In this document: positions 4,651 to 37,232 of the stretch, one piece after another | Layout of the letters: every line of letters begins with the position of its first letter | How positions within the stretch are numbered: the stretch's first letter is position 1 | IMG/VR virus record: IMGVR_UViG_3300037515_000764 | Source of the DNA: an uncultured virus (IMG/VR IMGVR_UViG_3300037515_000764) | Taxonomy: Duplodnaviria > Heunggongvirae > Uroviricota > Caudoviricetes | Reading direction: 5' to 3' (one strand) | DNA length: 64,000 nt | The notes under the pieces: model-generated | The model's input: the letters and a program-made list of their open reading frames with translations, nothing else | Told to the model about the DNA's origin: nothing | Database searches by the model: none | Translations under genes and position numbers: made by a program

Positions 4651-4916
4651 ATAACACCCTAATTATTAGGGGTTGGCAATTCGGATAACAAGTGATATAA
4701 TTGCATTATAACGATAAAGGATAAAGGTTAAATCAAATGACAATTTATCAACTAGCAATCGGACTAACACAAACTTTCGCATCAATCGCTTTCGTTTCTC
4801 TATTAGTTCGTTTCTACATGGCAATTTATAACATCGAATAACACCCCAATAATTAGGGGTTGAAAAGACAAGCAACAAGTGCTATAATTGTTTTATAACG
4901 ATAAAGGATAAAGGTT
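4651..4916 (+). promoter_or_regulatory. Two tandem duplicated promoter/RBS cassettes (187-bp period)
   Basis: TTGGCA-17-TATAAT (4673-4701) and TTGAAA-17-TATAAT (4860-4888), both with extended -10, each followed by identical TTATAACGATAAAGGATAAAGGTT. Confidence 0.8.
4737..4841 (+). CDS. 34-aa hydrophobic micropeptide
   Basis: MTIYQLAIGLTQTFASIAFVSLLVRFYMAIYNIE, with its own promoter and RBS. Confidence 0.6.
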   Translation: MTIYQLAIGLTQTFASIAFVSLLVRFYMAIYNIE

Positions 4917-4922
4917 GTCCCA

Positions 4923-14641: not shown

Positions 14642-14821
14642 ATGAGCAAATGGACAACTGAACAAGAGGACTTTCTATTTGATTATTATGGTCGTATAAG
14701 CCAACGTGAGTTATGCCACTGGTTGGGAAAATCTATAGGCGCTATTCAAAGTAAGGCTTTCAGGTTGGGAATTATTGCAAGTGAAAACTTAAAAGAGAAG
14801 GGCGCTGTTGAAAAAACCTAA
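14642..14821 (+). CDS. Small HTH (Myb/GcrA-like) DNA-binding protein, 59 aa, not in track
   Basis: MSKWTTEQEDFL...ELCHWLGKSIGAIQSKAFRLGI; GGAGAG RBS. Confidence 0.65.
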   Translation: MSKWTTEQEDFLFDYYGRISQRELCHWLGKSIGAIQSKAFRLGIIASENLKEKGAVEKT

Positions 14822-14823
14822 CA

Positions 14824-14852
14824 TTGACTTTGTTTTAGTTTTTTGTTATAAT
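14824..14852 (+). promoter_or_regulatory. Sigma70-type promoter
   Basis: TTGACT-17-TATAAT with TG. Confidence 0.75.
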
Positions 14853-14879
14853 TGAGTTATAATATAAAAGGAGATTTTA

Positions 14880-15527
14880 ATGAACGAAATCGACGTTAGA
14901 AATATTATTGAAGATAATTTAGAATATATTGAAGACCTTGGTTGTTATGAGGGCGCAGCAGAAGCTAAAGCTTTTCTAGATAATTTAGATTTGCAAAATA
15001 TTAGCATCTCTAATTATGATTGGGCTATTTCGCATGGTCTAGTCGAAAGTTCAATCATAGAAGAATATTTCAATAAATGGTTAAATGATGAAGATTTGCC
15101 GATTTTTGTCGAATGGCTTTTTGGCGAAGACCATATTATAGATGCAATAGTTGAAAATTACCCAGAATTAATTGCGGATAGTGAAAAATTATATAATCAC
15201 AGTTATTGGAGTGTTCGCTCAAATTGGGCTGAAATTACAAAAAACGAAGAACTAATAAAACAACGTTTTTTTGTTGAAGAAGACGCTTATGTTTTTGGAA
15301 TTTTATTTGATAAACTAGATTTAAAAGGTGAAATAGTCGATTGCGATTTTTCCAAAGGTTATATTTCATCTTTCGATTATCGCTACTTTAATGGAAAACG
15401 TTTTGTTACTGATACTTTCGATAATTTTGATGATGATGTTTTGTCGTTATCAGATGATATAATTGGCGAAATGAAATATCTGTCTGTCGAAGATTTAAGA
15501 ATTATTTATAAATATATTGGAGGCTAA
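14880..15527 (+). CDS. Hypothetical highly acidic protein
   Basis: 215 aa, D/E-rich, AAGGAG RBS. Confidence 0.8.
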   Translation: MNEIDVRNIIEDNLEYIEDLGCYEGAAEAKAFLDNLDLQNISISNYDWAISHGLVESSIIEEYFNKWLNDEDLPIFVEWLFGEDHIIDAIVENYPELIADSEKLYNHSYWSVRSNWAEITKNEELIKQRFFVEEDAYVFGILFDKLDLKGEIVDCDFSKGYISSFDYRYFNGKRFVTDTFDNFDDDVLSLSDDIIGEMKYLSVEDLRIIYKYIGG

Positions 15528-17461: not shown

Positions 17462-17505
17462 ACACCAAAAAAGGTGTTGTGTTGCTAGTTGGGATGTTAT
17501 ATAAT
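17462..17505 (+). promoter_or_regulatory. Promoter with ACAC-N8-GTGT box
   Basis: ACACCAAAAAAGGTGT (17462-17477) overlapping TTGTGT-17-TATAAT. Confidence 0.65.
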
Positions 17506-17511
17506 AATATA

Positions 17512-17596
17512 TAGAACGCAGAAAAAGTCGTTCTAGTCCCTCCTCCTCAATACCTTTTCCTTTTGTGCCTTTAGTTAATTCTAGAGGCACTTTTTT
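17512..17596 (+). ncRNA. Candidate ~85-nt sRNA/leader with anti-SD tracts and intrinsic terminator
   Basis: 5' hairpin TAGAACG/CGTTCTA, then CCCTCCTCCTCAA and CCTTTTCCTTTTG, then terminator GTGCCTTTAG/CTAGAGGCAC-T6. Confidence 0.6.
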
Positions 17597-17842: not shown

Positions 17843-18877
17843 ATGAATAACGCTCCTGTAACAATCGAAATTATCGAAACTGTTCGAAATCATCCAAATG
17901 CTGATAGATTAGACATCGCAACAGTTCGTCGTTTAAATTATAATTTTATTGTTCAACGTGATTTGTATTCTGTTGGCGATAAGGTTGTTTATATTCCAAT
18001 TGATTCTATCGTGCCTGATGAAATTTTAGCGAAAATAGGCTTAGATGGAAAACTAAAAAACAATCGGGTTAGAACGATTAAATTGCGTGGTTTAGTATCT
18101 CAGGGTTTAGTCGCTCATGTTAGTGATTTTGAAGAACTAAATTTAGATATGGAAGAAGGTTTGGAAGTCCAAGAACTTTTAGGAATCATAAAACACGAAG
18201 AACCACCAGAACTAATTAAAAATGGCGAACTACATCAATTACCGGCTTTTGTTGGTCGTTATGAACTAGCAAATGCTCAACAATACCCCGAAATAATTGA
18301 CGGTATTATTGACGGCGAAGTCTATGTTACTGAAAAATTAGAAGGCTCAAATTGGTGGGCTTCTTGGGATTCTGTTAATGAAAAATACATGGTTGGTCAA
18401 AGAAATTTTGAAATAATCATGGAAGAAGGAAAAACTCATACTTGGATTTCTGCTGCTGAAAAGATAAACGCTGAAAATAAATTGAAATACATAGCCAATT
18501 TATACAAAGCAAAAAGTGTTACTTTGCGTGGTGAAATCTTAGGTCCTAAAATTCAAGGAAACATCTATAAGTTAGATGAACATAAAATTTATATCTTTGA
18601 TATTGAGATTGACGGTGTTCCTTTGAATGCTGAAGACTTTTTTGAACTTTGTTCTGAATTACACATCGAAACTGTTCCAATTATCTACATTGGTTACGAT
18701 TTCAAAGAATTTATCGGTAACAAAACAGTTTTGGAATTTGCGGATGGGTTTTCAAAGATTAATAACGATGTTTTGCGCGAAGGTATAGTCATCAAACCGT
18801 TAATCGAACAATATTCTTATAAATTAGGTCGTTTAGCAGTTAAAGTTAAATCAACTGAGTATTTATCAAAGGAGTAA
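17843..18877 (+). CDS. RNA ligase (Rnl2 / DRB0094 family) with N-terminal OB-like domain
   Basis: HPNADRL, motif I TEKLEGSN, GEILGPKIQGN, FDI, REGIVIKP, VKVKS. Confidence 0.88.
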   Translation: MNNAPVTIEIIETVRNHPNADRLDIATVRRLNYNFIVQRDLYSVGDKVVYIPIDSIVPDEILAKIGLDGKLKNNRVRTIKLRGLVSQGLVAHVSDFEELNLDMEEGLEVQELLGIIKHEEPPELIKNGELHQLPAFVGRYELANAQQYPEIIDGIIDGEVYVTEKLEGSNWWASWDSVNEKYMVGQRNFEIIMEEGKTHTWISAAEKINAENKLKYIANLYKAKSVTLRGEILGPKIQGNIYKLDEHKIYIFDIEIDGVPLNAEDFFELCSELHIETVPIIYIGYDFKEFIGNKTVLEFADGFSKINNDVLREGIVIKPLIEQYSYKLGRLAVKVKSTEYLSKE

Positions 18878-18880
18878 TAG

Positions 18881-19249
18881 ATGTTTACTAAAGAAGAACG
18901 AGAAATAATTGAAAAATATGCTTTTGTATCTGATGCAAATTCTAGAGCAACTAAAACTTGGGAAAAGGACGGTCTATTCTACGAAATCGTTTTTAGGGAA
19001 GTTTTGGGTTTTGGTAATTATTATTGCGGATATGTAACAATACCACAAAGCACTTTTTTGCAAAGAGAAGAATTTGAAGATGTCGATGTTCATTGGGGCT
19101 TAACTTATATTAAATTATACGAAGATTGCATGAAATTTGGCTTTGATTGCGCTCACTTCGGCGATTCGGGATTGTCCTACACACGAGATTTGAATTGGTT
19201 AACTAAAGAGTGTGAACGAATGGGCGAACAGATAGCCGAACTAATTTAA
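18881..19249 (+). CDS. Conserved phage hypothetical protein
   Basis: YYCGYV, DVHWGLTY, FGFDCAH motifs common in phage proteins. Confidence 0.75.
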   Translation: MFTKEEREIIEKYAFVSDANSRATKTWEKDGLFYEIVFREVLGFGNYYCGYVTIPQSTFLQREEFEDVDVHWGLTYIKLYEDCMKFGFDCAHFGDSGLSYTRDLNWLTKECERMGEQIAELI

Positions 19250-19311
19250 AAATAAAAAAAGCTAACCGTTATCTCATTTCGCGGTTAGCTTTAAAGTCTC
19301 ATTTCGACCTT
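19250..19311 (-). ncRNA. Candidate ~60-nt sRNA with two CGAAAUGAGA loops
   Basis: Two hairpins sharing a 10-nt motif (TCTCATTTCG at 19272 and 19297 on plus), ending in a U-tract on the minus strand; promoter immediately upstream. Confidence 0.6.
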
Positions 19312-19317
19312 ATACTT

Positions 19318-19361
19318 ATTATACCAAATATTAATAACACATACAACACTAAAAAGGGTGT
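19318..19361 (-). promoter_or_regulatory. Leftward promoter with ACAC-N8-GTGT box
   Basis: Minus strand TTGTAT-17-TATAAT with TG. Box ACACTAAAAAGGGTGT at 19346-19361. Confidence 0.65.
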
Positions 19362-19364
19362 AAA

Positions 19365-20252
19365 ATGAATATCCAAACTGTTAATCTTTTAGCAGAAGAA
19401 ACAATTAAAGATATAATTATGCGTGGCTTAAGAAAATTAGCAGATAAACGTGGTTCAAAAGTTTCTGACCCTTCGCGTTTGTATCCTTCTTCTCTTCACT
19501 GCGTTGAACGTAAAGGTGTTTTGCAAAGTTTAACGAATACACGAGGCGGACGTTCTTCAAAAGCCGGTACTTTATATTTCATGGGTGAAATTGGTCAAAA
19601 GGTTCACGAAATTTTGCAAGATGCAATCAACGAAGACGAAAAAGCCGTTTTCTTCGAATTTCATACGCAAAACATCAAACATGCTAATATCGGCGGTTAT
19701 TTAGACGGATTAATTATTGTTGGTGGGTTGTTATACGTCTTAGAAATTAAGAGTTGCCAAAGTTTACCGCCCAAAGTTAAAAAGCCGCACGATAAGCAAA
19801 CTGATTTTTATTCGGCTTACTGCGGATTACCGGTTTTGACAATTTATCAGGTAAATAATGGTCAAACTAAGATGTATTTAGATGAAGATGAATTAGAAAT
19901 GTCATTTTTTATCAAAGAATACGACGAAGAAAACGCTTTTAATATCATGAAACAGATTTTCTTAACAAAGATTTTACAAGAAGCTCAAATTGTGCCGCCT
20001 ATTCCGCCTAAGTTTTCGGAAAATCAATGCAAAAACGTTTATCGTTGTAAATTATTTTATCATTGCCGTTCAGATAAGTTTTTAGTACCGCAAGTTGTAC
20101 CTGAAAGTTTAGAGGAACTGGCTGAAAAACGTGCTGAAAAATTTATTAATGACATGCCGCAACGTCGTAATGGTTCTTTGCGCCACTGTGTTAATGTTAA
20201 TAGGAATGCCGCAAAACTCCTAAAGAATAGAAATTGGGAAGAATTATTTTAA
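19365..20252 (+). CDS. Cas4-like / PD-(D/E)XK exonuclease
   Basis: PSSLHC, GQKVHE, GYLDG, LEIKS, QxxxY, and C-terminal C..C..C (Fe-S-type Cys layout). Confidence 0.8.
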   Translation: MNIQTVNLLAEETIKDIIMRGLRKLADKRGSKVSDPSRLYPSSLHCVERKGVLQSLTNTRGGRSSKAGTLYFMGEIGQKVHEILQDAINEDEKAVFFEFHTQNIKHANIGGYLDGLIIVGGLLYVLEIKSCQSLPPKVKKPHDKQTDFYSAYCGLPVLTIYQVNNGQTKMYLDEDELEMSFFIKEYDEENAFNIMKQIFLTKILQEAQIVPPIPPKFSENQCKNVYRCKLFYHCRSDKFLVPQVVPESLEELAEKRAEKFINDMPQRRNGSLRHCVNVNRNAAKLLKNRNWEELF

Positions 20253-24887: not shown

Positions 24888-25331
24888 ATGAATTTAAATG
24901 AACGTATGGTAATTGATATTGCGAATTCTTTTAATATTTTATCTTTGTTAGATAGAGAAAAAGCAACACAACTTGTAAATTTTGTTCGCGAATCCGGCGT
25001 TAACGGTAATCGTCGAACTTTTCAGAAAATTTTCAATCCATTTGTTTGGCAGCGCCCCGAAGAATTTGAACATTCTTATTTAGAATTTCGTTCTAATGCA
25101 GAATTAGCCGATTTTGTTGAAAGTAACGAAGATTTTTTTGTTGAGTTTGTAAGTGAAGTAGACGAAATTACTAAAGAAACTGGTCATAGTGGCGCTACTT
25201 TTTCGATGCTAACTGGTTCAATCTACTTGCTAATGTGTATTTTAACAGATGAACAAATTTTTTCTGGGATTATGACACCAAAACAGGCACACAATTATTT
25301 GTTCAATAGTGATTGGGAAACGGCAAAATGA
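24888..25331 (+). CDS. Hypothetical protein
   Basis: 147 aa, AGGAG RBS, GHSGATF motif. Confidence 0.75.
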   Translation: MNLNERMVIDIANSFNILSLLDREKATQLVNFVRESGVNGNRRTFQKIFNPFVWQRPEEFEHSYLEFRSNAELADFVESNEDFFVEFVSEVDEITKETGHSGATFSMLTGSIYLLMCILTDEQIFSGIMTPKQAHNYLFNSDWETAK

Positions 25332-25504
25332 AAGTATTGTTTTCTTTAGCTTATATAATTTTCTTTTTATATTATGTCGTTGTCTCTTTAATCTTCCGTT
25401 TTACACATGTCGAATTTACCGAAACGCAACTTTTTTTACACTGGCTACCGCATGTTGCAATTTTATTTGCTTCTTCAATTATTATTACTCTTTGGAGTGA
25501 TTAG
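25328..25504 (+). CDS. Small membrane protein
   Basis: ATGA overlap, two hydrophobic helices. Confidence 0.65.
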   Translation: MKVLFSLAYIIFFLYYVVVSLIFRFTHVEFTETQLFLHWLPHVAILFASSIIITLWSD

Positions 25505-25505
25505 T

Positions 25506-25637
25506 ATGTGGTATCTATATGCACACGGTATCGGCGTTTATCCTTTCAAAAGTCGCATTAGTTTACATCAAAAAATTAGCGAGTTACGCGAAAAGAATAA
25601 ACATTTGACTTTTACTGTTATAAAGAGGAATAAATGA
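25506..25637 (+). CDS. Hypothetical protein
   Basis: GGAG RBS, ATG 25506. Confidence 0.55.
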   Translation: MWYLYAHGIGVYPFKSRISLHQKISELREKNKHLTFTVIKRNK

Positions 25638-26032
25638 TGAAAAAAGTACAACAAGTAGAGAAAATAGTTTGTGATAATTGTAGTCGCGATATTGATACTA
25701 AAAAACATTATTTACATAACGAATACGGTGATTTTTGTATAAAGTGCAAATTTTTTCAATGTTGGCAATGCAACAAAGATGTTATATGTTCAAGTGAAGA
25801 TTTCGATGGTTTCTGTGGTGAAGAATGTTCTAAAAAATATCAAATTGAAAAAAGCACATATATAGCGACTGTTGGTGGAATAGAAATAAACCAAACAGCG
25901 AATGGCAGTTTTTATTTTACTGGCTATGAAGATGAAATTTTTACAATAGCTCACGGATGGAATTATGAACTTGAGATCGGTTGTTTCGAAGAACTTCTAG
26001 TTAGATTAAATGAACTATTAGAGGATAGATAA
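25634..26032 (+). CDS. Zinc-ribbon protein
   Basis: Four Cys pairs in the N-terminal half. Confidence 0.7.
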   Translation: MMKKVQQVEKIVCDNCSRDIDTKKHYLHNEYGDFCIKCKFFQCWQCNKDVICSSEDFDGFCGEECSKKYQIEKSTYIATVGGIEINQTANGSFYFTGYEDEIFTIAHGWNYELEIGCFEELLVRLNELLEDR

Positions 26033-26227
26033 ATGTCTTTTATAACTTTTGCTAAAAATGATATTTTACGCGAACTTGGAAAAGATAGAGAAGATGAAGT
26101 TTATTATGATGAACTAATTGGTTCTCTAATAAAGTATTTTCGTAGTGAATATCCGACGATAAAAGATGTAATGTTAGATGGGTATTTCGAACTTTTAAGA
26201 GACTATGCGGTTTCGGAGGAAAAATGA
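26033..26227 (+). CDS. Hypothetical protein
   Basis: 64 aa, GAGGA RBS. Confidence 0.65.
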   Translation: MSFITFAKNDILRELGKDREDEVYYDELIGSLIKYFRSEYPTIKDVMLDGYFELLRDYAVSEEK

Positions 26228-26631
26228 CAAAGATTGAAGAGATGTTTCCCCAAATTGTTCTCATTTGCGATAAATGCGGAAAAAAGAGGGTTCTTACACA
26301 AGCTTTCAATTGGCTTTCTTCTGGTGACGAACATTTTTGTGATAATTGTTATGTTAAGACGTGCTTTGTTTGCGGCTTAAAAGATGATTTAAAAGTATCC
26401 AAAAATGTTTATGGCCGCTATGTTTGTCGTCCTTTGTTTAATGACTGTGCAAATAAATATTATCGTTCTTTAGGACGAGTTGTTTTTACATTCAAAGATT
26501 CAGAAATAATTTTACATGAAAATAGCGAATTAAGTATTGGTTATGATGGCGAACTTTACGATTTGTTAAGTGGCGAAGGAATAGACGAAAGACAGTTAAC
26601 GGTGTTTTTGAAGGAGCTATTAGAAGAGTAA
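26224..26631 (+). CDS. Zinc-ribbon protein (paralogue of 25634-26032)
   Basis: Same Cys spacing and similar C-terminus. Confidence 0.7.
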   Translation: MTKIEEMFPQIVLICDKCGKKRVLTQAFNWLSSGDEHFCDNCYVKTCFVCGLKDDLKVSKNVYGRYVCRPLFNDCANKYYRSLGRVVFTFKDSEIILHENSELSIGYDGELYDLLSGEGIDERQLTVFLKELLEE

Positions 26632-26726
26632 TGAAAAAAATACGATTGTTTGTTGACGAAAGTAGGTTTTATTTTTAACAATAGATTGGCATAAGGAACA
26701 CTACCCGTCTATATGTATTTTCATAT

Positions 26727-26755
26727 TTGACAAATATTTTAAGTTGTATTATAAT
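26727..26755 (+). promoter_or_regulatory. Consensus sigma70 promoter for the tRNA cluster
   Basis: TTGACA-17-TATAAT. Confidence 0.8.
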
Positions 26756-26761
26756 AAAAAT

Positions 26762-26840
26762 AGGCGTGTAACCCGAACAACCTTCTAAGTTGTTATCGGT
26801 AACGGAGTTGAAAATGTGGATTCGAATTCCACCGCGCCTG
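26762..26840 (+). tRNA. Non-canonical tRNA-like RNA, UCU (Arg) loop, no canonical D-arm
   Basis: Acceptor AGGCGTG/CGCGCCT, T-arm GTGGA-TTCGAAT-TCCAC, AACAAC-CTTCTAA-GTTGTT. Confidence 0.65.
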
Positions 26841-26872
26841 CAACTTTTTTATTTGAAAATGAAGGAAACTAA

Positions 26873-26986
26873 ATGCCAAGATATGATTTTTGTGAATGCG
26901 GAAAAAGAAAAAGGTCAAAATCTAATTGGTTCTCCTATTATTTAAAAAACCTCGTTGGCTCAATCGGCGGAGCGTTTGCTTACTAG
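26873..26986 (+). pseudogene. Possible truncated gene remnant (CECG zinc-knuckle start) between tRNAs
   Basis: GAAGGA RBS, MPRYDFCECGKRKRSKS..., frame runs into the next tRNA. Confidence 0.3.
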
Positions 26987-27020
26987 CAAATTATCACTAG
27001 TTCGAATCTAGTACGAGGTT
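26949..27020 (+). tRNA. tRNA with 6-nt anticodon loop (probably Val-UAC derived)
   Basis: ACCTCGT/ACGAGGT, GCTC/GAGC, TTTGC-TTACTA-GCAAA, ACTAG-TTCGAAT-CTAGT. Confidence 0.65.
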
Positions 27021-27023
27021 CAA

Positions 27024-27208
27024 GCTAAAATCTGCTAGCAAGGTTTTAGTGGCACTTTAAGCCATGTGTAGTTGGCTAGCGTTATTCGGTTGATTAACGT
27101 GAACGGTTTAGCGAAATCGTTAGTGGATTACAATGCCATTCGTTAGCATGTTCGTTTGCGGAATATAGGCTGTGCTGTTAACTACCATCGAGGTACAGTC
27201 TATATTTT
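27024..27208 (+). ncRNA. Candidate structured RNA downstream of tRNA
   Basis: Consecutive stems with G-U pairs favouring the plus strand; 14-bp terminal hairpin whose loop is complementary to GTAGTTGGC upstream. Confidence 0.5.
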
Positions 27209-27231
27209 TATTATTCAAAAGGAAAAGAAAA

Positions 27232-27492
27232 ATGGAATGTAAATTTTGCGGAAAACAAATTGAAAATAATGATTTCTGTGACAATTATTGTTCTTGGCAA
27301 TTCGCAATGTTTGATTATGTTTATCCAAATGGAGAAAGTAAAGTTGTTAAAGTGGTCGATGTTAACTTAACTGCTTATATTTTAGAAGACGGCGTAGTTA
27401 TTTTAACTAAAGACGATGACAATGAAACTGTTTTGTGGAGAATAAGTGATTGGGCTGAACATGTTAATATTCTTAGAAGTTTTGATATATAA
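27232..27492 (+). CDS. Small zinc-finger protein
   Basis: MECKFC...FCDNYC; ATG 27232. Confidence 0.7.
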   Translation: MECKFCGKQIENNDFCDNYCSWQFAMFDYVYPNGESKVVKVVDVNLTAYILEDGVVILTKDDDNETVLWRISDWAEHVNILRSFDI

Positions 27493-27893
27493 TGCAAACA
27501 TTTCTACCCTATTCCGATTTCGAAAAGTCTGCTAAATGTTTGGACTATAGACGTTTGGGAAAACAGCGCGTCGAAGCAATGCAGTTAGTAAAAGCTTTAA
27601 CAGATGAAAATTATGGTTGGCAAAATCACCCGATAACTAATATGTGGCGCGGTTATGTCGAAGCTTTAAAACTTTATCACAATATTATGATTTATGAATG
27701 GCAATTACGCGGCTATAATAACATGATGCTTAAATATGCTACAATTCAAAATCCGCCAATGCCAGAGTGGTTAGGAAGCGAAGAATTTCACGAATCACAC
27801 CGAAGAAAACTTTTATGGAAAAGCCCTAAATGGTATAACCAATTTGATTGGGGCGAAGTTCCGTTAGAAGAACCTAAATATGTTTGGTTTTAA
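27492..27893 (+). CDS. Pyrimidine-dimer DNA glycosylase-like protein (MSMEG_6728 family)
   Basis: MQTFLPY.DF..SA..LD..RLGKQRVEA.Q, W.NHP...MWRGY, FHESHR..LL.K. Confidence 0.85.
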   Translation: MQTFLPYSDFEKSAKCLDYRRLGKQRVEAMQLVKALTDENYGWQNHPITNMWRGYVEALKLYHNIMIYEWQLRGYNNMMLKYATIQNPPMPEWLGSEEFHESHRRKLLWKSPKWYNQFDWGEVPLEEPKYVWF

Positions 27894-27896
27894 CAG

Positions 27897-27925
27897 TTGA
27901 CATTCTCTCTATTTTATGATATTAT
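27897..27925 (+). promoter_or_regulatory. Promoter for second tRNA group
   Basis: TTGACA-17-TATTAT with TG. Confidence 0.7.
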
Positions 27926-27936
27926 TATATATAAAT

Positions 27937-27996
27937 GGCTAGGTGGTGAAGTGATTTGCAAAACCGTTATCAACAGTTCGAATCTGTTTCTAGCCT
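27937..27996 (+). pseudogene. tRNA-Cys(GCA) with internal deletion
   Basis: Acceptor GGCTAGG/TCTAGCC and T-arm intact, TTGCAAA loop present; 3' D-strand and 5' anticodon strand missing (60 nt). Confidence 0.65.
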
Positions 27997-28004
27997 AGAA
28001 AAAT

Positions 28005-28077
28005 TGAGCCGTAGTTCAAATGGTAAGAACGCCGTTCTTATAAAGCGGTAATCCTAGTTCAATTCTAGGCGGCTCAA
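28005..28077 (+). tRNA. tRNA-Ile(UAU)
   Basis: Full cloverleaf: TGAGCCG/CGGCTCA, GTTC/GAAC, CCGTT-CTTATAA-AGCGG, CCTAG-TTCAATT-CTAGG. Confidence 0.9.
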
Positions 28078-28202
28078 CAGGAAGCTAAATGAACGCGGCT
28101 TCTAAAATTATAGCGTTAAACTAATATATTTTTAAAGGGCTGTTTAGGTTATTTAACTAGCAGCCCAAATTTCTATCATATAACATAAGGAGCATTACAA
28201 AA

Positions 28203-28931
28203 ATGGGATTAGTATTACAAGAAACTAAAAATGTAGGTGAAAAGAAAGATTATAAGAGTCCGTTTGTTCCAGCTTTGCCTAGTGGAACTACTAGCTTCGT
28301 CGCTTTGGCAGATATGGGCGACACTGAACGTTTCCAATGGACAGTAAAAGGTTATTCGTATTACATTAATAACAAGCGAGATGAAAGCTTTGTTTTGCCT
28401 GTTTTTGAAGATAATTCAGACCTTAACCCAGAACTTTTAGCAATGGCTGAAGCTGGCAATCTTCCTAAACACTGGTGTGAATATATCGACGATTATGAGG
28501 AAAAGGAAGGCGAACGCCGCGACGGAACAGTCTACCAATACCGTCGTTACGCTAAATGGTATCCGAAAAGTTTCATCTATCTTCCAGTAATTTACTCAAC
28601 TGATGGTTCAAATTGGGAAAACGGTGTTCTCTTAGTTAAGAATTCTATTTTCAAAGTTTTGAAGCACAAGAAAAATTGGAGAGGGTTACACTTCCACATT
28701 CATCGTTCCGGTAGTGGTTTGAATACTGAATATGCTTTTGAAGTTGATGAAGAAACTCCGCGTTGGGATGAAGAAATGCTTGAAGAACACGAACCAACTA
28801 ATGTTTTAGAACACATTGCGGCTACTCGTGATGCACAACGGGCTATGGTTTTCTACAAGTGGGGTGTTGTTACTCCGTTGCAAGAAAATGATACTCCGCA
28901 AGCAGGTATTGATTTCGAAGCAACCCAATAA
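28203..28931 (+). CDS. Putative single-stranded DNA-binding protein (gp32-like)
   Basis: IHRSGSGLNTEY motif, acidic C-terminus, heads the replication region. Confidence 0.6.
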   Translation: MGLVLQETKNVGEKKDYKSPFVPALPSGTTSFVALADMGDTERFQWTVKGYSYYINNKRDESFVLPVFEDNSDLNPELLAMAEAGNLPKHWCEYIDDYEEKEGERRDGTVYQYRRYAKWYPKSFIYLPVIYSTDGSNWENGVLLVKNSIFKVLKHKKNWRGLHFHIHRSGSGLNTEYAFEVDEETPRWDEEMLEEHEPTNVLEHIAATRDAQRAMVFYKWGVVTPLQENDTPQAGIDFEATQ

Positions 28932-28946
28932 GAATCGGAGTTCATA

Positions 28947-29513
28947 ATGATTAACAAGACGTTTGACCAACAACTCATAGCACAATTAGGCAAAAATAAT
29001 GCTACAGCTAAATGCAATAAGTGTTTGGGTTTTGGACATTATGAACTCCCTTCATTTTTCGCTGGTAATTTTCAAGCTGAAATTGTGTTTATTGAATCCT
29101 TTAATTTTGCTTCTGATGAATTAGTAATACCCGAAGAAACACCAGAGTTCTTCAAAAATTCATTGAAAGCGGAAATGTATTTGACTGTTTCCGGTAAAAG
29201 AGAGATTTTAAACAAAATTTTACCGGAAACTCTTAAATACGGCATCCCGAAGTGGATGTTTACAAGTGCCGTTAAGTGCTTCCAAAAAGAAGGTCGAATT
29301 CCATCGGCTCAACAAATTGAAAATTGCAAAACGTGGAAACCTTTCTTGGAAAACGGTTTGACATATGTTTTATGCGGCTCAATTGCCAAAGAATATTATG
29401 GCTTTTTTGATGCCGAGAACTACTTCAAGATAAAGAGGGACGGAACAACTTATATCTGTGTCGAAGATTTACTCGAAATAGATATTGAAAGGCTAAAAAA
29501 ACTCCTTGTCTGA
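28947..29513 (+). CDS. Uracil-DNA glycosylase family 4-like protein (divergent)
   Basis: CxxC, GNFQAEIVFI, TSAVKC, RIPS..QIENC, VLCGSIA. Confidence 0.7.
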   Translation: MINKTFDQQLIAQLGKNNATAKCNKCLGFGHYELPSFFAGNFQAEIVFIESFNFASDELVIPEETPEFFKNSLKAEMYLTVSGKREILNKILPETLKYGIPKWMFTSAVKCFQKEGRIPSAQQIENCKTWKPFLENGLTYVLCGSIAKEYYGFFDAENYFKIKRDGTTYICVEDLLEIDIERLKKLLV

Positions 29514-30732
29514 AAATTACTCATATGATGTTGTTGTAGTTGGTGGCGGTTTAACGGGTCTTTATATAAAAGAAAAGCTATCCGATACATTTGATACTTG
29601 TGTTATTTCATCGACTGTATTAGGTAAGGCAAATGATTATACCGTTGGCAGTTTACATCTAAATTCACACGTTTACGAAAGACCAAACAAACTCTTCGAA
29701 ACCTATATAAGAAAATTTGGCAAAGTCATTAAACATTCGGCGAAAATTGGCAGTTTAGATTTCCCAACTTTCTTAGAAGATTATGCGCAGTTGCGTTTAA
29801 TTCTTGGTTACGAAGATGAAACAAGTCCTAAAGATTCAGCCCATCGAAATTTTAGAGAGCGAACGCAACAAAGATTTGGCGAATTATTTACTGATACTTG
29901 GTTGTATTCTTTTATGGCGAAAAAATGGGGCGGTTTAAATCCTTTCGACGATTTAGAAGGAATAGAGCTACCGCTAGTCCAAGAAGAACTTTACAGAATC
30001 GACATTGATAAATATACAAGGCAAATTGCTACACAAAAGATTTTAAAAGACACTGTTACAGAGGTTCATAAACCGATTGATAAAATTCGCGGTTATGTGA
30101 TAACTCAAACGGGTCATAAAATCTTTTTCAAATATCTTATTAATACAACTGACATACGAAACTTGTTTATGTTGGAGGATTTAAATTTCAATCTCTTAAG
30201 ACAAATGCACCGAAGAACAGTTGGTGTTCGTTTCGATAAAAGATTAAAGACTAAATTTACAACGGAAGTTTCCAACATAGACAAAAAGGTTACTATTGTA
30301 GAATATGACGGTAATACGGCGCGTTTTCATTATGATTATGCACCGCCTTTAACTGGTTTGCCATATTATCTAAACGTAGATTCTAAATCGTGGTCGCGTA
30401 TTAACAATAGTTTAATAGTTTCGGCTATTCCACCTGAAAGCTTAGTGAATGTTTTCGATGATTCGCACTTTCACACAGACGGCAAAATAGAAGATACCGC
30501 CTTATACGACTATCCGCTAACACCGATACCACTCAGAAAAACGAAAGATGAAGTTAGCAGAATCAAGAAAAATCTTTTCTCTTCATCTATTTTTTCGGTT
30601 GGCAAGTGGGGAAGCTTTAAACCCTACGGCCTAGTAGAAAGTTTAATGGATGCGGAAAATCTTTGCGATATTCTTTTAGGCCAAGGAGATAATTTCCATA
30701 AAGAGCTATATTTTAATGGAATTGATAGTTGA
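29506..30732 (+). CDS. FAD-dependent oxidoreductase (UDP-galactopyranose mutase/amine oxidase-like fold)
   Basis: VVVGGGLTG, KKWG, LINT, and C-terminal VGKWGSF. Confidence 0.65.
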   Translation: MSENYSYDVVVVGGGLTGLYIKEKLSDTFDTCVISSTVLGKANDYTVGSLHLNSHVYERPNKLFETYIRKFGKVIKHSAKIGSLDFPTFLEDYAQLRLILGYEDETSPKDSAHRNFRERTQQRFGELFTDTWLYSFMAKKWGGLNPFDDLEGIELPLVQEELYRIDIDKYTRQIATQKILKDTVTEVHKPIDKIRGYVITQTGHKIFFKYLINTTDIRNLFMLEDLNFNLLRQMHRRTVGVRFDKRLKTKFTTEVSNIDKKVTIVEYDGNTARFHYDYAPPLTGLPYYLNVDSKSWSRINNSLIVSAIPPESLVNVFDDSHFHTDGKIEDTALYDYPLTPIPLRKTKDEVSRIKKNLFSSSIFSVGKWGSFKPYGLVESLMDAENLCDILLGQGDNFHKELYFNGIDS

Positions 30733-31511
30733 GCAGTTACAAAAGGATTGACAAAAACCAAAAAGAGATAGTCGAAAAGTTGCGTAAGTGGGGGTTGTCT
30801 GTGACCTCCACTGCTACAATTCATAAAGGTTTCCCAGACATTATTGTTGGTTTTTCTAATCTCAATCTTCTTGTTGAAATAAAAGCCGATAAAAATTCCA
30901 AACTTACCCCGCATCAAATAGATTTTCATAGAGAATGGAAAGGAGAGATAATGGTTGCAACTACAGCAGAAGAGATTTTGTTGAGATATTTCGAGCTTCA
31001 AAAAATAAATTCATCTTTAGTATATATTTTCGAGGGAGCTTCTGGTATTGGCAAAAGCTTTATCGTCGATTATTTGAAGTTAAATGAGCCTGAAACAAAA
31101 ATAACCCGTTTTGAATTCTTTAATGAAGAAGACTATGGTTTAGATTATAACTCAATGGTTCGTTTTTTAGCTGAAAAAGTTATCGGAAGTCATCGTAAAT
31201 TAATTTTCTTTGACGGTTTTCATTTAACTGCTCTAGCCTTAAACAGAATAACGCAAGAAGAATTCGATATGTTACAAGGCTTTTTAGATGTTGCAAATAG
31301 TCTAACTCTTCTTCTTACAATGAACAAAGAAATGCACGAGAAGTTTGATAATAATAGATTAAAACATTCGACTGGTTGTACACAGGAAATGTTATCTGAA
31401 ATTGAATGCAAAAAAGAAGATGTTTACTTTGAAGACCAATTTGACGTTAACGATTTTATCGGGAGACTTTTACTTGAGATGAAGAATAGCGATGAATTAT
31501 GGTTGTTTTAA
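30729..31511 (+). CDS. VRR-NUC/Holliday-junction resolvase-like nuclease fused to P-loop NMP-kinase-like domain
   Basis: RIDKNQKEIV..GFPDIIVG..LVEIK..LTPHQ..F..W, then IFEGASGIGKS. Confidence 0.75.
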   Translation: MSSYKRIDKNQKEIVEKLRKWGLSVTSTATIHKGFPDIIVGFSNLNLLVEIKADKNSKLTPHQIDFHREWKGEIMVATTAEEILLRYFELQKINSSLVYIFEGASGIGKSFIVDYLKLNEPETKITRFEFFNEEDYGLDYNSMVRFLAEKVIGSHRKLIFFDGFHLTALALNRITQEEFDMLQGFLDVANSLTLLLTMNKEMHEKFDNNRLKHSTGCTQEMLSEIECKKEDVYFEDQFDVNDFIGRLLLEMKNSDELWLF

Positions 31512-32017
31512 GTTCTAATAACGGCGATATGGTTTTTAAATCAATTAAACAGTTTGATATTCTTTTTAAGAATTTTGGATATGGCGATATTAGACATTTA
31601 AGACATGGACACGCCGAAATTGATGATAATGACATTCTTATAAGGCTTAGAAAATTCGAAGATATAGAATACGAAATGTTTTTTTGGTTTTACGCCGGAA
31701 CAGTTTTGCGCAAAAATATTAGATTTGAAATAAGAGAACACTTTGAAAAGCCCGAATTCGAAACATTTGAACTTCTAGGCGATAGTTTTAGCCAACACAA
31801 GATTTTGCGTGAAGCTTGCCGCAATGTTGATTTCGTTGATAAGTTTAGATATTTTTTGAACGAGTTGAATATTGGTTGGAAGGATTTAGCGTTATTTCAT
31901 TTCTGTGTTCATTCAAATTCAATCGGAAGACATTTAGAATATAATTCCTTTTCAAAAGAAATAGAGATAAAATGTTTAAAAGAGAAACTGAGATTAATTA
32001 CTGGTCTGAGATATTAA
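31499..32017 (+). CDS. Hypothetical protein
   Basis: 172 aa, coupled. Confidence 0.7.
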   Translation: MVVLSSNNGDMVFKSIKQFDILFKNFGYGDIRHLRHGHAEIDDNDILIRLRKFEDIEYEMFFWFYAGTVLRKNIRFEIREHFEKPEFETFELLGDSFSQHKILREACRNVDFVDKFRYFLNELNIGWKDLALFHFCVHSNSIGRHLEYNSFSKEIEIKCLKEKLRLITGLRY

Positions 32018-32113
32018 AATTAATTAAAGCGTGTAAAGAAGCCGAAAGTGAAGATGAAAAAGAAACCATTTTGGAAAGAATCAACGTTTTGTACATTAAA
32101 GGAACATTAGAAA

Positions 32114-32470
32114 ATGGATAAACTAATTTCCTCTATAATAAGACTATTTTTGAAGTTTCATATAAACCAAGAAGAACTTATTTTGGGATTAGAAAAACGT
32201 GTTAGAGAAATAGAAACGGATTTGGCACTAGAAGTCACTACGTTTAACGGCTTCGAATATAACGAAGATACTTTAAATACAAATATAATTAGAACTCTAA
32301 CAGATTTGTTGTTGCTTCTAATTGTTCGAGAATGCGACATTGATAAGTCTTGTGAAATTTTTGCGGAAGAGCTAAACAAAATAAGTTTAGAAACACACTC
32401 TTTTCGAAGAGGAAGGTTTTTAAAGAATTCAAAAGACGATTATCCGAATATAACCGGAGGTATTCTTTAG
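32114..32470 (+). CDS. Hypothetical protein
   Basis: 118 aa, AAGGA RBS. Confidence 0.7.
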   Translation: MDKLISSIIRLFLKFHINQEELILGLEKRVREIETDLALEVTTFNGFEYNEDTLNTNIIRTLTDLLLLLIVRECDIDKSCEIFAEELNKISLETHSFRRGRFLKNSKDDYPNITGGIL

Positions 32471-32749
32471 ATGGAGAAAGTTTTATTTTGCGGACTTTTA
32501 TTTGTTATTGTTTTGTTATCTGCTACTTTTTACTTTCAGCATCAAACAATTGAGAATAGCTACTCGCGCCAAGAATCAATAGAAGATGAACAGGTGATTT
32601 TAATCAACGCCTATTACGATTCCGAAACAATTGAACAAAGAAAATTCGCCGTTGAACGCTTAGAAGATATGTGTTTTGAATATGGCAAAAATAAGATGCT
32701 AAGACAAGCTCAAGTTATTTTATCTAACGAGGATGCGTTATGTCGTTAA
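32471..32749 (+). CDS. Membrane-anchored protein
   Basis: N-terminal TM helix, GGAGG RBS. Confidence 0.7.
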   Translation: MEKVLFCGLLFVIVLLSATFYFQHQTIENSYSRQESIEDEQVILINAYYDSETIEQRKFAVERLEDMCFEYGKNKMLRQAQVILSNEDALCR

Positions 32750-33129
32750 GTAATTTTGATAAACTAAAAGCGATGTTTGAATTTTATGAACAATTTGAAA
32801 ATTTAAAAAGAATCGAAATTGATGACGATTATACATGCCTTTTGTATAGTAAAATTGGTCAGTTGTTTATTATAAACGAATTCTATTCAATCTCTGTTTA
32901 TAATAAAAATTCAAAAAAGCTTTTATATGAAAATTCAGTTGGCTATATGACTTTCGATTCTAAACTTGAATTGCGCGACTGTGAATTTGAAGATTATGAA
33001 ACTTTTTATTATGTTTTCCAAAAAGTTTATGAGATATACGAAAATGATTTAGCTTTCGAAAATGAAAGAAATAAAAAGAAAATCGAAGGAATCAAAAAGT
33101 TTATGGGAGAGAATTTTGTAGATGATTAA
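32740..33129 (+). CDS. Hypothetical protein
   Basis: 129 aa. Confidence 0.7.
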   Translation: MSLSNFDKLKAMFEFYEQFENLKRIEIDDDYTCLLYSKIGQLFIINEFYSISVYNKNSKKLLYENSVGYMTFDSKLELRDCEFEDYETFYYVFQKVYEIYENDLAFENERNKKKIEGIKKFMGENFVDD

Positions 33130-33445
33130 CAAACTTTGGCAATCAACTAAAGATTTTCATGGCAAATGGGATTTCAAAGCGCTAACGGCAAAAGGTGTCA
33201 AACGTGCTTTTTTGGAAGAAGTTGATGAAGTTATAGAGGAATTAGAAAAAGAGGTTTTAGATTTAGATGCGCTTTGCGAAGAAATGGTTGATGTATTAGT
33301 TACATTACTCGGAATTTGTATCTATTATAATATAAGTTTGTTTCGGTTTAGCGGTTTCATTGATAAAGTCTGCAATAAAAATGATGCTAAAAATCACGAA
33401 ACGCACTACTTAGATAAGAAAACCTCAAAAATAACAAGACGCTAA
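33122..33445 (+). CDS. MazG-like nucleotide pyrophosphohydrolase
   Basis: EEVDE...EEMVD acidic motif. Confidence 0.75.
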   Translation: MINKLWQSTKDFHGKWDFKALTAKGVKRAFLEEVDEVIEELEKEVLDLDALCEEMVDVLVTLLGICIYYNISLFRFSGFIDKVCNKNDAKNHETHYLDKKTSKITRR

Positions 33446-33457
33446 TAATCCTCTAAC

Positions 33458-33502
33458 TTGAATAGACTAGCAGACGATGATATAATAAACTTATATCATC
33501 GT
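33458..33502 (+). promoter_or_regulatory. Promoter of replication operon overlapped by 12-bp inverted repeat
   Basis: TTGAAT-17-TATAAT; ACGATGATATAA-N5-TTATATCATCGT. Confidence 0.65.
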
Positions 33503-33528
33503 TTTATGCTATTAAAGGAGAAATAAAT

Positions 33529-33753
33529 ATGTATCTTAAACATGCAAATGAAATTTTAAAGTCGGATATGGTTTTTGCTTTACAGATTGGACAAACGGGG
33601 ATTTTAAAGCTAAAACCAATTAAAAATCGTTTTCAGGAAGCGGCGTTTGATGTAAATGTCGAGATAGATTTAAACGAGGAGTATCTACTGCTTTGCAAGA
33701 GAGATAATATGTATGTACTCATTGTAGAGCCAAAATCAGATGTTGAAGTTTAA
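33529..33753 (+). CDS. Hypothetical protein
   Basis: 74 aa, AAGGAG RBS. Confidence 0.7.
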   Translation: MYLKHANEILKSDMVFALQIGQTGILKLKPIKNRFQEAAFDVNVEIDLNEEYLLLCKRDNMYVLIVEPKSDVEV

Positions 33754-33772
33754 TAAAGAAAGGAAATACTAA

Positions 33773-36634
33773 ATGTGCAATCATCCTAGTTTACATACTC
33801 ATAGTACATTCGGCTTTTCAGACGGTGCAGATTCGCCTTATGACTTAGCCAAAAATGCCGCTAAACTTGGTGCGACTGCTTTAGCTATAACTGAACACGG
33901 TACACTAGGCTCAATGGTTGCCCACGAAAAAGCATGTAAATCATTCGGCCTAAAACATATCTTTGGTAACGAAATGTATATTTTAATTGATGAAGAACGT
34001 TACCATTTAACAGTTTTGGCGCAAAATCAAGTTGGTGTTGAAAACCTTATTAGAATTAATAATCTTTCGCATTTAAACAGATTTAAAAATAGACCATGTT
34101 TAACCTACGAACAATTATTTGAGCATAACGAAGGATTGATTGTTCTTTCAGGTTGTATAGCGTCACCGTTTCAGGCGATGTCAGAAGATGATTCATTTAA
34201 GTTGGCTGAAGAGTTTGTAAATGTTTTTAATGATAGATTTTACGCAGAAACGATGCTTTTCAACAGAGATAGTCAGCATTATAATCGCGCTGTAGATTTA
34301 TCTAAAAGATTTAATATCAAACCAGTTTTTACAAATGACGTTCACCGTGTAGATAAGCAATTTGCCGATGAACACTACGAATTTTGTAGAATTAATTCAG
34401 GTTTTGCTTACGATGTTAGCCAACTGTATATGAAAACAGACGATGAATTGCTTGACTTAGCGAACGGTCTAGGAATTGATTTAAGTGAACCTATTCGAAA
34501 TGCTAAACTTTTAGCTGATAGCATCGAACAAACGACTATTTTACGCGAACCAGTTTTGCCAAAAGTTGATGATGCTAAAAAGAAATTGTCTATCAAAACT
34601 TTTAAATGGTTAAATAAAGAATTCCCGTTTGAAAGCGAAGAAAAGAAAAAATATAAAGAGCGGTTAAATAAGGAATTAAGTGTAATAGATGAAATGGGAA
34701 CAAATTCTTATTTCATTTTGTTAGACGAAATGTTAGAGTATTGTCGCGAAAACGGCATTAAAACAGGGTTTGGAAGAGGTTCCGGCGTGGGGTCGTTAAC
34801 ACTTTTTGCGCTAGGTGCTACTAAAGTTGACCCATTTGGACATGGCTTAATCTTTGAACGTTTTATGCACAAGCAGCGCGAAGGTTTACCCGATGTAGAT
34901 ACGGATATTCCAAATGATAGACGCGATGAATTTTTAGATTGGGTTAAGACGAAATATAATGCTGAACAAATTGCAACGCATTCTCATTATTCTTTTGCTA
35001 GTTGTATACAATATATATCACGCAATTTTGGTTTCTCTAAGGAGTTAGAAAATAGTCTAAAAATGTTAGGCGGTTTGTCACAGGATGAAATGTACGAACA
35101 TCCAACTTGGTTAGAAGCTTGCAAAAAAGAGCCGCGTTTACCGCGTTTATTCGAATTTATGATTGATAAAGTTAAAGGTTTAGGGCAACATGCAGGTGGT
35201 ATCGTTTTACTACCAGACGGTTTATTGCTACCAATTGAATCAACGGCAGATAAAAAAGGTTTGCAAATAGCTTTCGACAAAAAAGACGTTGAAGATGCAG
35301 GCGGGGTTAAGTTTGATTTCTTAGGCGTTAAAAACATGGCGTTAATAGCACTTTGCGAAAAATTGACGGGCGTAGAAGCCCCACATCCGTTAGATATACA
35401 AAAAGATGACCCAATGTGGGAACAGTTCGCAAACGGTCAAACAAGCGGTGTTTTTCAGTTATCTACACCAACTGCAATCGAGCTTTGTAAAAATGTAAAA
35501 CCAACAACTGTAGACGAATTAGCTGAAATTTCCGCATTGAATAGACCATCGGCTTTAGGTTCGGGGTTAGCTAGCGAATATCATATTTTAAAGTCTAATC
35601 CGCGCAAATTCGGTCATGCTTTAGTTGATGATATTTTGAAAACAACAGGCGGAATTATTCTTTTTGAAGAACAAATGATGTCAATTGTTCAGTGTTTCAC
35701 GGGCGGTGATTTTTCCGATGCGGATATGGCGCGTAGGTTAGTTACGAAGTTTTATAACTTTAAAGGCGAGAAAAAAGGCGAAGCGGTTAAGCAAATTGAA
35801 GAACTCAGAAATAGATTTGTTGAAGGAGCTTTTGCGCAAGGCGTTTCACGTAGTATTTCAATGGCTGTTTGGGAAGACATTCAAAACTATGTTAGATACG
35901 GTTTTAATAAATCTCATGCAACGGCTTATGCTTACAACAGTACAGTGAACGCTTGGTATCGTTATTATCATCCAGTGGAATTCTTTACAGCTTGTATGAA
36001 CATTGATGACAAAGTTAACGCGGTGCAGTATATTTTTGATGCAATTAATATGGGCGTTGAAGTTAAACCTCCGAATATTTTAAATCCGTCTGATTCTTGG
36101 ACAACTGATGGCGAAACTATCTTTGCGCCTTTAACTTCAGTTAAGTTTTTGTCAGAAAAAGCTGTTGAAGATATTATGGAAAATGCGCCATTCGAAAACA
36201 AAAAAGATTTCAATGACAGAACAACAACTCGATTGACAAATAAGAGAATTAAGAAATCTTTGTTTATGGTCGGCGCGTTAGCTGATTTGGAAGGTGATTA
36301 TTCAGATTTGGGTTTAAAGGATAAAGATTTCGAGGATTGCCGTTTTGAAATTGGAAGTTTTAAGGCAAGGCAAATGTTTATGAACGAAGTAATTCCGACT
36401 AAAAACGTTGTTAAGTGGATACAAGAATATAGTGGAATAGCTGGTATTGTTACGAAGGTTAAAAAGAAGAAGTCTGATTATGGCGCGTATCGTTCTTATC
36501 TAACTACACCGCATACTGATATGGGCGTTTGGATGCGCGAAACAGATGGACTTTTAGAGGTTGGAGATTGTGTTAGATTGAATCTGAAGAAAGATAACAA
36601 TAAGATTTTATCTTTTGAACATTATGGAGAGTAA
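33773..36634 (+). CDS. dnaE: DNA polymerase III alpha subunit (family C)
   Basis: PHP LHTHS..SDG, ITEHG; GRGSGVGS; catalytic PDVDTD; HAGG; KFDFLG; YGFNKSHA. Confidence 0.95.
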   Translation: MCNHPSLHTHSTFGFSDGADSPYDLAKNAAKLGATALAITEHGTLGSMVAHEKACKSFGLKHIFGNEMYILIDEERYHLTVLAQNQVGVENLIRINNLSHLNRFKNRPCLTYEQLFEHNEGLIVLSGCIASPFQAMSEDDSFKLAEEFVNVFNDRFYAETMLFNRDSQHYNRAVDLSKRFNIKPVFTNDVHRVDKQFADEHYEFCRINSGFAYDVSQLYMKTDDELLDLANGLGIDLSEPIRNAKLLADSIEQTTILREPVLPKVDDAKKKLSIKTFKWLNKEFPFESEEKKKYKERLNKELSVIDEMGTNSYFILLDEMLEYCRENGIKTGFGRGSGVGSLTLFALGATKVDPFGHGLIFERFMHKQREGLPDVDTDIPNDRRDEFLDWVKTKYNAEQIATHSHYSFASCIQYISRNFGFSKELENSLKMLGGLSQDEMYEHPTWLEACKKEPRLPRLFEFMIDKVKGLGQHAGGIVLLPDGLLLPIESTADKKGLQIAFDKKDVEDAGGVKFDFLGVKNMALIALCEKLTGVEAPHPLDIQKDDPMWEQFANGQTSGVFQLSTPTAIELCKNVKPTTVDELAEISALNRPSALGSGLASEYHILKSNPRKFGHALVDDILKTTGGIILFEEQMMSIVQCFTGGDFSDADMARRLVTKFYNFKGEKKGEAVKQIEELRNRFVEGAFAQGVSRSISMAVWEDIQNYVRYGFNKSHATAYAYNSTVNAWYRYYHPVEFFTACMNIDDKVNAVQYIFDAINMGVEVKPPNILNPSDSWTTDGETIFAPLTSVKFLSEKAVEDIMENAPFENKKDFNDRTTTRLTNKRIKKSLFMVGALADLEGDYSDLGLKDKDFEDCRFEIGSFKARQMFMNEVIPTKNVVKWIQEYSGIAGIVTKVKKKKSDYGAYRSYLTTPHTDMGVWMRETDGLLEVGDCVRLNLKKDNNKILSFEHYGE

Positions 36635-36636
36635 AA

Positions 36637-37041: not shown

Positions 37042-37232
37042 TACCTAACTATAAAAGAAAATTTGTGGCGGTTGTTTTCTATCTAAACTTCAAATGGAAA
37101 GTCGCCACTACAAAAACTAAACAATTCGAAACAAGAGAAGAAGCCGAAAAATGGGCTAACGAATTCTTAGCTGATAAGATTGGTTTTATTAAAGAAATAC
37201 GCAGAAAGGAAATAACAGACATTGTTGACTAA
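37038..37232 (+). CDS. Small AP2-like/Arm DNA-binding protein
   Basis: KTKQFETREEAEKW motif. Confidence 0.5.
   Translation: MIPNYKRKFVAVVFYLNFKWKVATTKTKQFETREEAEKWANEFLADKIGFIKEIRRKEITDIVD

Follow-up and report, generated by a model that had tools for sequence, protein, structure and literature searches.

In a tailed phage from sediment we see what seems to be a very small RNA gene that stands alone and displays one ten-letter word in each of two loops; the resulting twin-loop RNA would most likely act as a decoy for a host protein, possibly a nuclease that cuts CRISPR RNA. We infer from the sequence its transcription, the binding of a protein, the host and any anti-CRISPR effect.

Genomic setting of the unit

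The window, by which we mean the whole 64,000-nucleotide stretch analysed, is AT-rich (about 33% GC), with early and middle genes on the plus strand (~5-41 kb) and structural genes on the minus strand (41-64 kb). The small-RNA unit sits wholly between 19249 and 19365, with a 122-aa gene on one side and a Cas4-like gene on the other:

17843..18877, plus strand: RNA ligase (PF09414, phrog_968)
18881..19249, plus strand: 122-aa gene, function not assigned (phrog_2164)
19254..19311, minus strand: predicted small RNA of ~58 nt, with its presumed start at a purine (+7 from the -10 box) and its end in a U-tract
19365..20252, plus strand: Cas4-like PD-(D/E)XK nuclease with four conserved cysteines (phrog_1706)

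An AAA ATPase and a 607-aa gene come after the Cas4-like gene, which stands solo and is the only cas gene among the flanking genes scanned. A phage Cas4-like protein has been linked to host-derived spacers in the accessible text of PMC4283603.

Several other features were recorded along the way. GATC is nearly absent from the coding strands of the whole window (3 observed against 118 expected), a scarcity that points to host restriction at GATC. At 4660-4920 (+) two near-identical strong promoters share a common leader, each followed by a short hydrophobic ORF. At 24780 and 33458 (+) of the window, and likewise at L341:2500, L342:4933 and L357:15418 (-), a terminator-like or long hairpin lies about 60 nt or less behind a promoter and ahead of a gene; these are possibly attenuated leaders.

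Anatomy of the predicted small-RNA unit

The elements of the unit are the following:

19341..19346, minus strand: -35 box TTGTAT, fitting the matrix of the phage's other promoters
19318..19326, minus strand: extended -10 box TG-N-TATAAT (TG at 19326-19325, TATAAT at 19323-19318), after a 17-nt spacer
19293..19311, minus strand: hairpin 1, 6 bp including one G-U pair, with the 7-nt loop GAAAUGA at 19305-19299
19258..19292, minus strand: hairpin 2, the 11-bp stem of an intrinsic terminator, with a 13-nt loop at 19281-19269
19254..19260, minus strand: U7 tract; on the plus strand only UUU follows the stem
19297..19306, minus strand: copy 1 of the 10-mer, in or over the loop of hairpin 1
19272..19281, minus strand: copy 2 of the 10-mer, in the loop of hairpin 2; GAAAUGAGAUAA here is identical to nt 4-15 of the CRISPR repeat of genome G428 (see below)

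The leftward promoter TTGTAT-17-TATAAT named in the preliminary description is indeed present and ranks among the phage's promoters: with a matrix built from 9 hand-picked phage promoters it takes rank 15 of about 128,000 positions and is 6th among sites outside the training set, and the predicted start at 19311 is the first base of hairpin 1. A generic promoter and terminator scan returned neither the promoter of the unit, whose -35 box scores 3/6, nor its terminator, whose loop exceeds 8 nt. Two hairpins with a U-tract had also been described, and they fold on the minus strand as expected (-19.2 kcal/mol, z -4.2, with 0 of 200 shuffles as good). The argument for the minus strand drawn from stem 1 stands only in part: full pairing of that stem is indeed confined to this strand, but the plus strand reaches a lower z (-5.3), and hairpin 2 gains a U-G pair there. 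Since folding does not settle the strand, the orientation rests on the promoter and on the U7 tract, which occurs on the minus strand only.

The ten letters that lie, as had been noted, in or over both loops are CGAAAUGAGA, and the two exact copies are the sole sites in the window. The probability of being unpaired is about 0.9 for both copies, and a C-G pair closes both of the loops that hold GAAAUGAGA. Of 5000 dinucleotide-shuffled versions of the 55-nt core, 5 contained a repeat of 10 nt or longer. Among 22 promoter-to-terminator units from the window and 12 related phages, this is the only one with a 10-nt repeat, the next best having 8 nt; the window itself contains 14 exact repeats of at least 10 nt at a spacing of 10-50 nt. 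The twin repeat is thus unusual for a unit of this kind and not for the window as a whole.

Retention in related strains and searches for homologues

Strain variants were compared on contigs from 4 of the 11 listed runs. In two X2 contigs the 122-aa gene is skipped, with joints running from 18864 and 18873 to 19255, the end of the U-tract; the short sides of these joints measure 24-26 letters, below the length of 30 letters that calls for caution, but a contig of X3, from another study, starts at the same place. Related strains therefore keep the RNA unit while losing the adjacent gene. Within the unit, the differences listed for X2, X3 and X4 are a change of C to G at 19324 (the N of the -10 element) and one base added behind 19317; both spare the promoter boxes. 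A further 460 strain differences lie beyond these, and we therefore make no claim of invariance for the hairpins. The anatomy and this retention make it very probable that the unit is a real small RNA gene, standing alone and oriented antisense as the preliminary description had proposed, whose transcription would start at the leftward promoter.

Viral contigs, genomes, metagenomes and 24 capsid relatives were searched for diverged homologues and yielded none; neither the twin word nor the Cas4-like gene occurs in any of the 24 capsid-related virus records. A twin 10-mer was present in 14 viral-contig stretches and 85 genome stretches, 2 of these 99 passing the fold filter; both survivors are tandem repeats without a U-tract and were rejected as twin-hairpin units. 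Searches for a promoter-anchored twin 8-mer flagged 2 of 77 stretches in viral contigs and 2 of at least 119 in metagenomes, none of them a twin hairpin with a terminator. The pattern of a promoter, GTNGAAATGAG and a T-run gave 43 stretches (23 distinct), in none of which the word lies in the loop of a promoter-terminator unit. The Cas4-like query found no locus in viral and metagenome contigs, although a Cas4-like gene of 58% identity (P0002) is known, and blastn against GenBank phages gave chance short matches only. A search of Rfam, which the preliminary description had asked for, placed the unit in no family.

Other small units were seen during these searches. A prophage unit of about 70 nt (L702) consists of promoter, hairpin and terminator and has GTTGAAATGAG in the stem, not in the loop. 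Antisense promoter-to-terminator units with CU-rich cores lie inside operons of capsid-related phages at L326:4791 (-), of 105 nt, and at L355:5423 (+), of 67 nt. In the window, a second small-RNA candidate at 17477-17596 (+) has the promoter TTGTGT-17-TATAAT, a hairpin, an unpaired CU-rich stretch resembling an anti-SD and a strong terminator; the X2, X4 and X8 contigs diverge directly after 17596. No phage target of this candidate rose above shuffles, and the twin-loop RNA pairs only weakly with it or with the phage tRNAs.

Resemblance to the 5' segment of CRISPR repeats

Genome stretches with three periodic copies of GAAATGAG were collected, and the at least 120 stretches obtained included, among those listed, 35 true CRISPR arrays. 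In 17 of them the repeats, which are 36-37 nt long and end in a 3' stem and handle, carry the word 3-4 nt in from the 5' end; another 17 have it at offset 13-21, in repeats that look like type II repeats in what we take to be reversed orientation; one array belongs to neither class. The repeats with the word near the 5' end, 23 of them distinct, come from records titled Lachnospiraceae, Armatimonadota, Syntrophales, Anaerolineales and others. Type II-like repeats of distant taxa (L364, L368, L397, L439, L516 and others) have CTCATTTC at a similar position, in a set that was chosen by the word.

Among the arrays listed, the closest resemblance is to that of G428, a genome with the record title Anaerolineales in which Omp85 was not found. 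This array lies behind cmr1, csx11/cas10, cmr4, cas6 and cas1, a Cmr-type type III locus whose cas6 scores 56 bits, slightly below the cut-off of 58.65. The Cas6 of L514 is encoded at 14694-15515. Hairpin 1 (copy 1 and the two preceding bases) agrees with nt 1-12 at 11 of 12 positions in the type III-like repeats of both G428 and G1126, and hairpin 2 with nt 4-15 of the G428 repeat at 12 of 12 (GAAAUGAGAUAA). The phage RNA has the crRNA sense of this repeat, which fits the expectation for a mimic. In the window GTNGAAATGA occurs once and GAAATGAG twice, all inside these loops. Four further arrays starting with GTNGAAATGA were found near G428, in 2 of 60 relatives and in 2 of 400 class members, and the one control run with the reversed pattern gave none.

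Several observations limit the weight of this match. It is partly circular because nt 4-11 are the search word. Position 3 is C in both copies of the RNA and never C in the 23 repeats. By hand count, the class of G428 has about 76 genomes with arrays, and in about 3 of these the repeats begin with the word; 5' segments differ widely in this class, so the match may well be due to chance. A Lachnospiraceae repeat contains the identical 12-mer, and type II repeats of Bacteroidaceae contain it in reversed form. The likeness of hairpin 2 to the repeat stem is not significant (P 0.16), a near-complete repeat with cognate stem and cut site is absent from the unit, where only nt 1-12 and 4-15 match, and a search with CRISPR-DR families gave no match there. 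An equally good explanation of the GU ahead of copy 1 is the end of a Shine-Dalgarno sequence; reading frames in other phages begin with this arrangement.

As regards the host, the capsid relatives fall in two bins, and the bin titled Anaerolineales carries Omp85. G025, which holds L201, has the title Anaerolineales and a genome with Omp85, which makes the label or the bin doubtful. In a sample centred on G025, none of whose members recur in the samples centred on G428 and which therefore represents another class, 1 of 401 genomes had a true word-bearing array, of type II. A narrower pattern gave no additional array in 400 phylum members, and atlas and cluster look-ups returned no host taxon. 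The spacer sets searched (476, 360 and 63, overlapping), together with a comparison of window positions 25000-44000 with 5 genomes, yielded no good match to the phage. The best exact spacer match, of 17 nt, joins window positions 58445-58461 (+) to the first bases of spacer 6 in the G428 array; the match begins with base 1 of the spacer and runs antisense to a late gene, and 25 of 41 bases agree overall. None of 300 shuffled spacer sets reached 17 nt, but a 20-nt chance match in a transporter gene shows that spacer matches of this size arise by chance; the 17-nt match was therefore not used as a host call and is probably a chance one.

A proposed decoy model

We tentatively propose that the unit encodes a decoy RNA with two protein sites, about half of our confidence in this falling on Cas6 and the rest on some other protein. 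In this proposal the small RNA gene would be transcribed by the host sigma-70-type polymerase, and GAAAUGAGA, unpaired in two loops, would bind an RNA-binding host protein at two sites. The leading named partner would be Cas6, the crRNA-processing nuclease, of a type III system with repeats starting GUN-GAAAUGAG. With two displayed copies of the single-stranded 5' segment, which might be offered to a Cas6 dimer, the RNA would compete with the pre-crRNA while itself containing neither a cognate stem nor the 8-nt handle. The preliminary description had suggested a decoy or anti-defence mimic in general terms; the 5' segment of type III CRISPR repeats now gives that suggestion a concrete candidate. 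The description had overlooked AUG-AGA-stop, a rival to be taken seriously.

According to the accessible part of PMC3902920, Cas6 enzymes may be dimeric and contain a site at which the single-stranded 5' segment binds, and the available text of PMC9458426 cites nt 1-12 as the binding site of Pyrococcus-type Cas6. For Thermus Cas6A the portion of PMC3902920 at hand describes the stem as indispensable and nt 1-8 as dispensable. The Cas4-like gene adjoining the unit was counted in favour of this proposal. That the RNA would be an anti-CRISPR against type III, made of only two copies of the 5' segment and missed by searches with whole repeats, we regard as rather unlikely.

Codon usage, tRNA elements and mini-ORFs

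The statement that the unit contains no ORF needs amending: it overlaps no gene, but two mini-ORFs had been missed.

19291..19302, minus strand: mini-ORF 1, AUG AGA CUU UAA (MRL*), with AGGU 4 nt upstream
19269..19277, minus strand: mini-ORF 2, AUG AGA UAA (MR*), inside the terminator loop, with no Shine-Dalgarno sequence

AGA and ATA are much commoner in the late genes (40900-64000) than in the early and middle genes (5000-40900). AGA is the most shifted codon, its share of Arg codons rising from 31% in early and middle genes to 59% in late ones (P 1.4e-13), and AUA is third.

A tRNA-like fold lies directly behind a strong promoter at about 26761-26842 (+); it has an acceptor stem, a T-arm and a long arm that ends in the loop CUUCUAA (UCU), lacks a D-arm in the usual place and was called by neither ARAGORN nor Rfam. 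Further along are a tRNA with an anticodon loop of 6 nt at 26949-27021 (+), a Cys-like tRNA without a D-arm at 27937-27996 (+) (Rfam E 0.004) and, at 28005-28078 (+), a tRNA-Ile whose anticodon is the rare UAU.

Alternative explanations

Read as codons, both 10-mer copies give AUG-AGA with a stop 0-1 codons later, and the unit could then be a minigene RNA that drains tRNA-Arg(UCU): ribosomes that initiate at the AUG after AGGU would reach the rare codon AGA and a stop ahead of a stable stem, peptidyl-tRNA would be dropped, perhaps with a restart at the second AUG-AGA-UAA, and the drain would keep the AGA-rich late genes waiting for phage tRNA to accumulate, or would harm the host or rival phages. 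The codon shift described above agrees with this, and so does the presence in the window of tRNA-Ile(UAU) and of the tRNA-like fold with a UCU loop, but phage tRNAs alone explain the shift, and the UCU element is the one that ARAGORN and Rfam did not call. In sampled genes of G428, which is only a stand-in host, 53 of 1268 Arg codons are AGA; in the phage AGA makes up 43% of all Arg codons, so that a sink would slow the phage too. The available text of PMC2490762 reports that AGA close to the start and short minigenes sequester tRNA, and that of PMC8501985 describes CreT as a rare-codon mini-ORF followed by a stem-loop. A stable stem-loop does lie behind the mini-ORF here, its 11-bp stem overlapping the MRL* stop, but each mini-ORF has a single AGA where CreT has two consecutive ones. 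As to efficient initiation, the first AUG has AGGU 4 nt upstream, an arrangement also seen where reading frames open in some other phage records; the leader is of 9 nt only, and the 4-nt Shine-Dalgarno sequence pairs within hairpin 1. No such sequence precedes the second AUG, which lies inside the 11-bp stem, and a minigene does not need the identical CGAA. We consider the minigene an unlikely explanation, and very unlikely its extension to a codon timer, in which an early RNA would drain scarce tRNA-Arg(UCU) and delay AGA-rich late genes until a phage tRNA takes over.

The RNA might instead act by base pairing, either in cis, in the manner of lambda OOP, by forming with the operon mRNA between the ligase and Cas4-like genes a perfect duplex that RNase III would cut, or in trans, where the two loops would serve as a doubled seed for UCUCAUUUC in a host RNA, for example the pre-crRNA repeat of a type II-C system; to this we assign a low probability. 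A leftward promoter, RNA and terminator inside a rightward operon is the oop layout (available text of PMC5869508), the same layout with CU-rich cores is found in 2 of the 12 capsid-related phages fetched (L326 and L355), and in the 17 of 35 listed arrays with offsets 13-21, which look like reversed type II and of which one locus was confirmed by Cas9, the loops could pair over 9-12 nt. Our RNA, however, overlaps no coding or start region, in contrast to oop, which shares 52 nt with cII. With 19252-19311 blocked, the Cas4-like start region costs only 0.44 kcal/mol less to open. Of 98 phage start regions none was a conspicuous trans target (75 and 85 of 100 shuffles were as good), and identical loops are not needed for action in cis. 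Finally, the unit may contain no functional RNA at all, the hairpin being a terminator or mRNA-stabilising element behind the ligase operon, the leftward promoter a roadblock or idle, and the repeat a product of chance or slippage. The stem starts 10 nt or less from the upstream stop codon whichever gene precedes, the plus-strand fold is no worse than shuffles predict, the window holds the 14 comparable repeats, and the searches above found no homologue. This explanation is nevertheless quite improbable: the minus strand alone has the U-tract, the promoter scores like the real promoters of the phage and its predicted start coincides with the first base of hairpin 1, and both copies lie in loops with an identical closing pair. 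The 25-bp spacing would put the two copies, as DNA, on different faces of the helix and so speaks against an operator.

Comparison with known systems

By its defining features the unit lies outside the Racr, CreT and CsrB families; it is decoy-like if our reading is right. As described in the accessible part of PMC10651486 (Camara-Wilpert et al. 2023), Racrs or solitary repeat units are viral, intergenic, transcribed from their own promoter, in repeat sense and proposed to tie up Cas6, and the unit is likewise viral and intergenic with its own promoter; a Racr needs the whole repeat and its stem, whereas the phage RNA has neither, showing only a 9-12 nt 5' segment, twice, in loops. For the subtype of the host, the best spacer match is the 17-nt one (25/41 overall). 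In the portion of the Racr supplement available, the word occurs in at least 5 rows of the SRU table, 4 of which are one type II-C repeat; the repeat set of that paper has 17,823 members. The crRNA-like Cracr RNAs of phages, in the available text of bioRxiv 10.1101/2024.10.29.618823, are also built from CRISPR repeat parts; the unit differs in having no 5' handle and no spacer-length guide, its copies being 25 nt apart.

CreT (PMC8501985) and toxic minigenes (PMC2490762), so far as their accessible texts go, share with the unit an AUG, AGA, an early stop and a stem-loop behind; the unit differs from CreT in having two ORFs with one AGA each, a leader of very short length, an AGA-heavy phage around it and no cas operon among the flanking genes scanned. 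With lambda OOP, in the part of PMC5869508 available, the unit shares a short leftward transcription unit in a rightward operon, with its own opposite-strand promoter and terminator; the overlap of OOP with the coding or start region of its target is absent here, and the twin loops are a further difference.

The minigenes likened here are of the lambda bar type. In CsrB, GGA motifs are presented in loops. The analogy with CsrB and RsmZ made in the preliminary description is useful as logic only, and membership was rejected, the unit having no GGA and no match in Rfam. CsrB/RsmZ RNAs and, in the accessible text of PMC8934654, ANTAR RNAs show one motif in more than one loop, as the unit does; an ANTAR twin hairpin was rejected, the loops being of 7 and 13 nt rather than A1/G4 hexaloops and AAUGAG being flanked by A and A. 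A ToxI mimic was also rejected, as the available part of PMC8860590 describes a need for tandem pseudoknot repeats of ~36 nt and the repeat here is of 10 nt; the ToxN cut motif GAAAU (PMC10853763, available in part) is present in the unit and occurs 208 times in the coding strands against 204 expected. Among the open-access papers listed, none reports a decoy made of part of a repeat or a minigene RNA of such a form in a phage; preprint supplements may list such units.

Simple mutants of the 58-nt RNA carry opposite predictions for a decoy and for a minigene. If it is neither, the unit would be another small antisense unit, of a kind also present in related phages. If it is a minigene sink, a CreT-like RNA would be used by a phage to time its own late genes. 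If the Cas6 decoy is true, it would point at type III, for which the accessible part of the Racr paper (PMC10651486) gives no tests, those it describes being in I-C, I-E, I-F and V-A; and it would show that ten letters of a repeat are enough to build an RNA anti-CRISPR, one that searches for whole solitary repeats would overlook.
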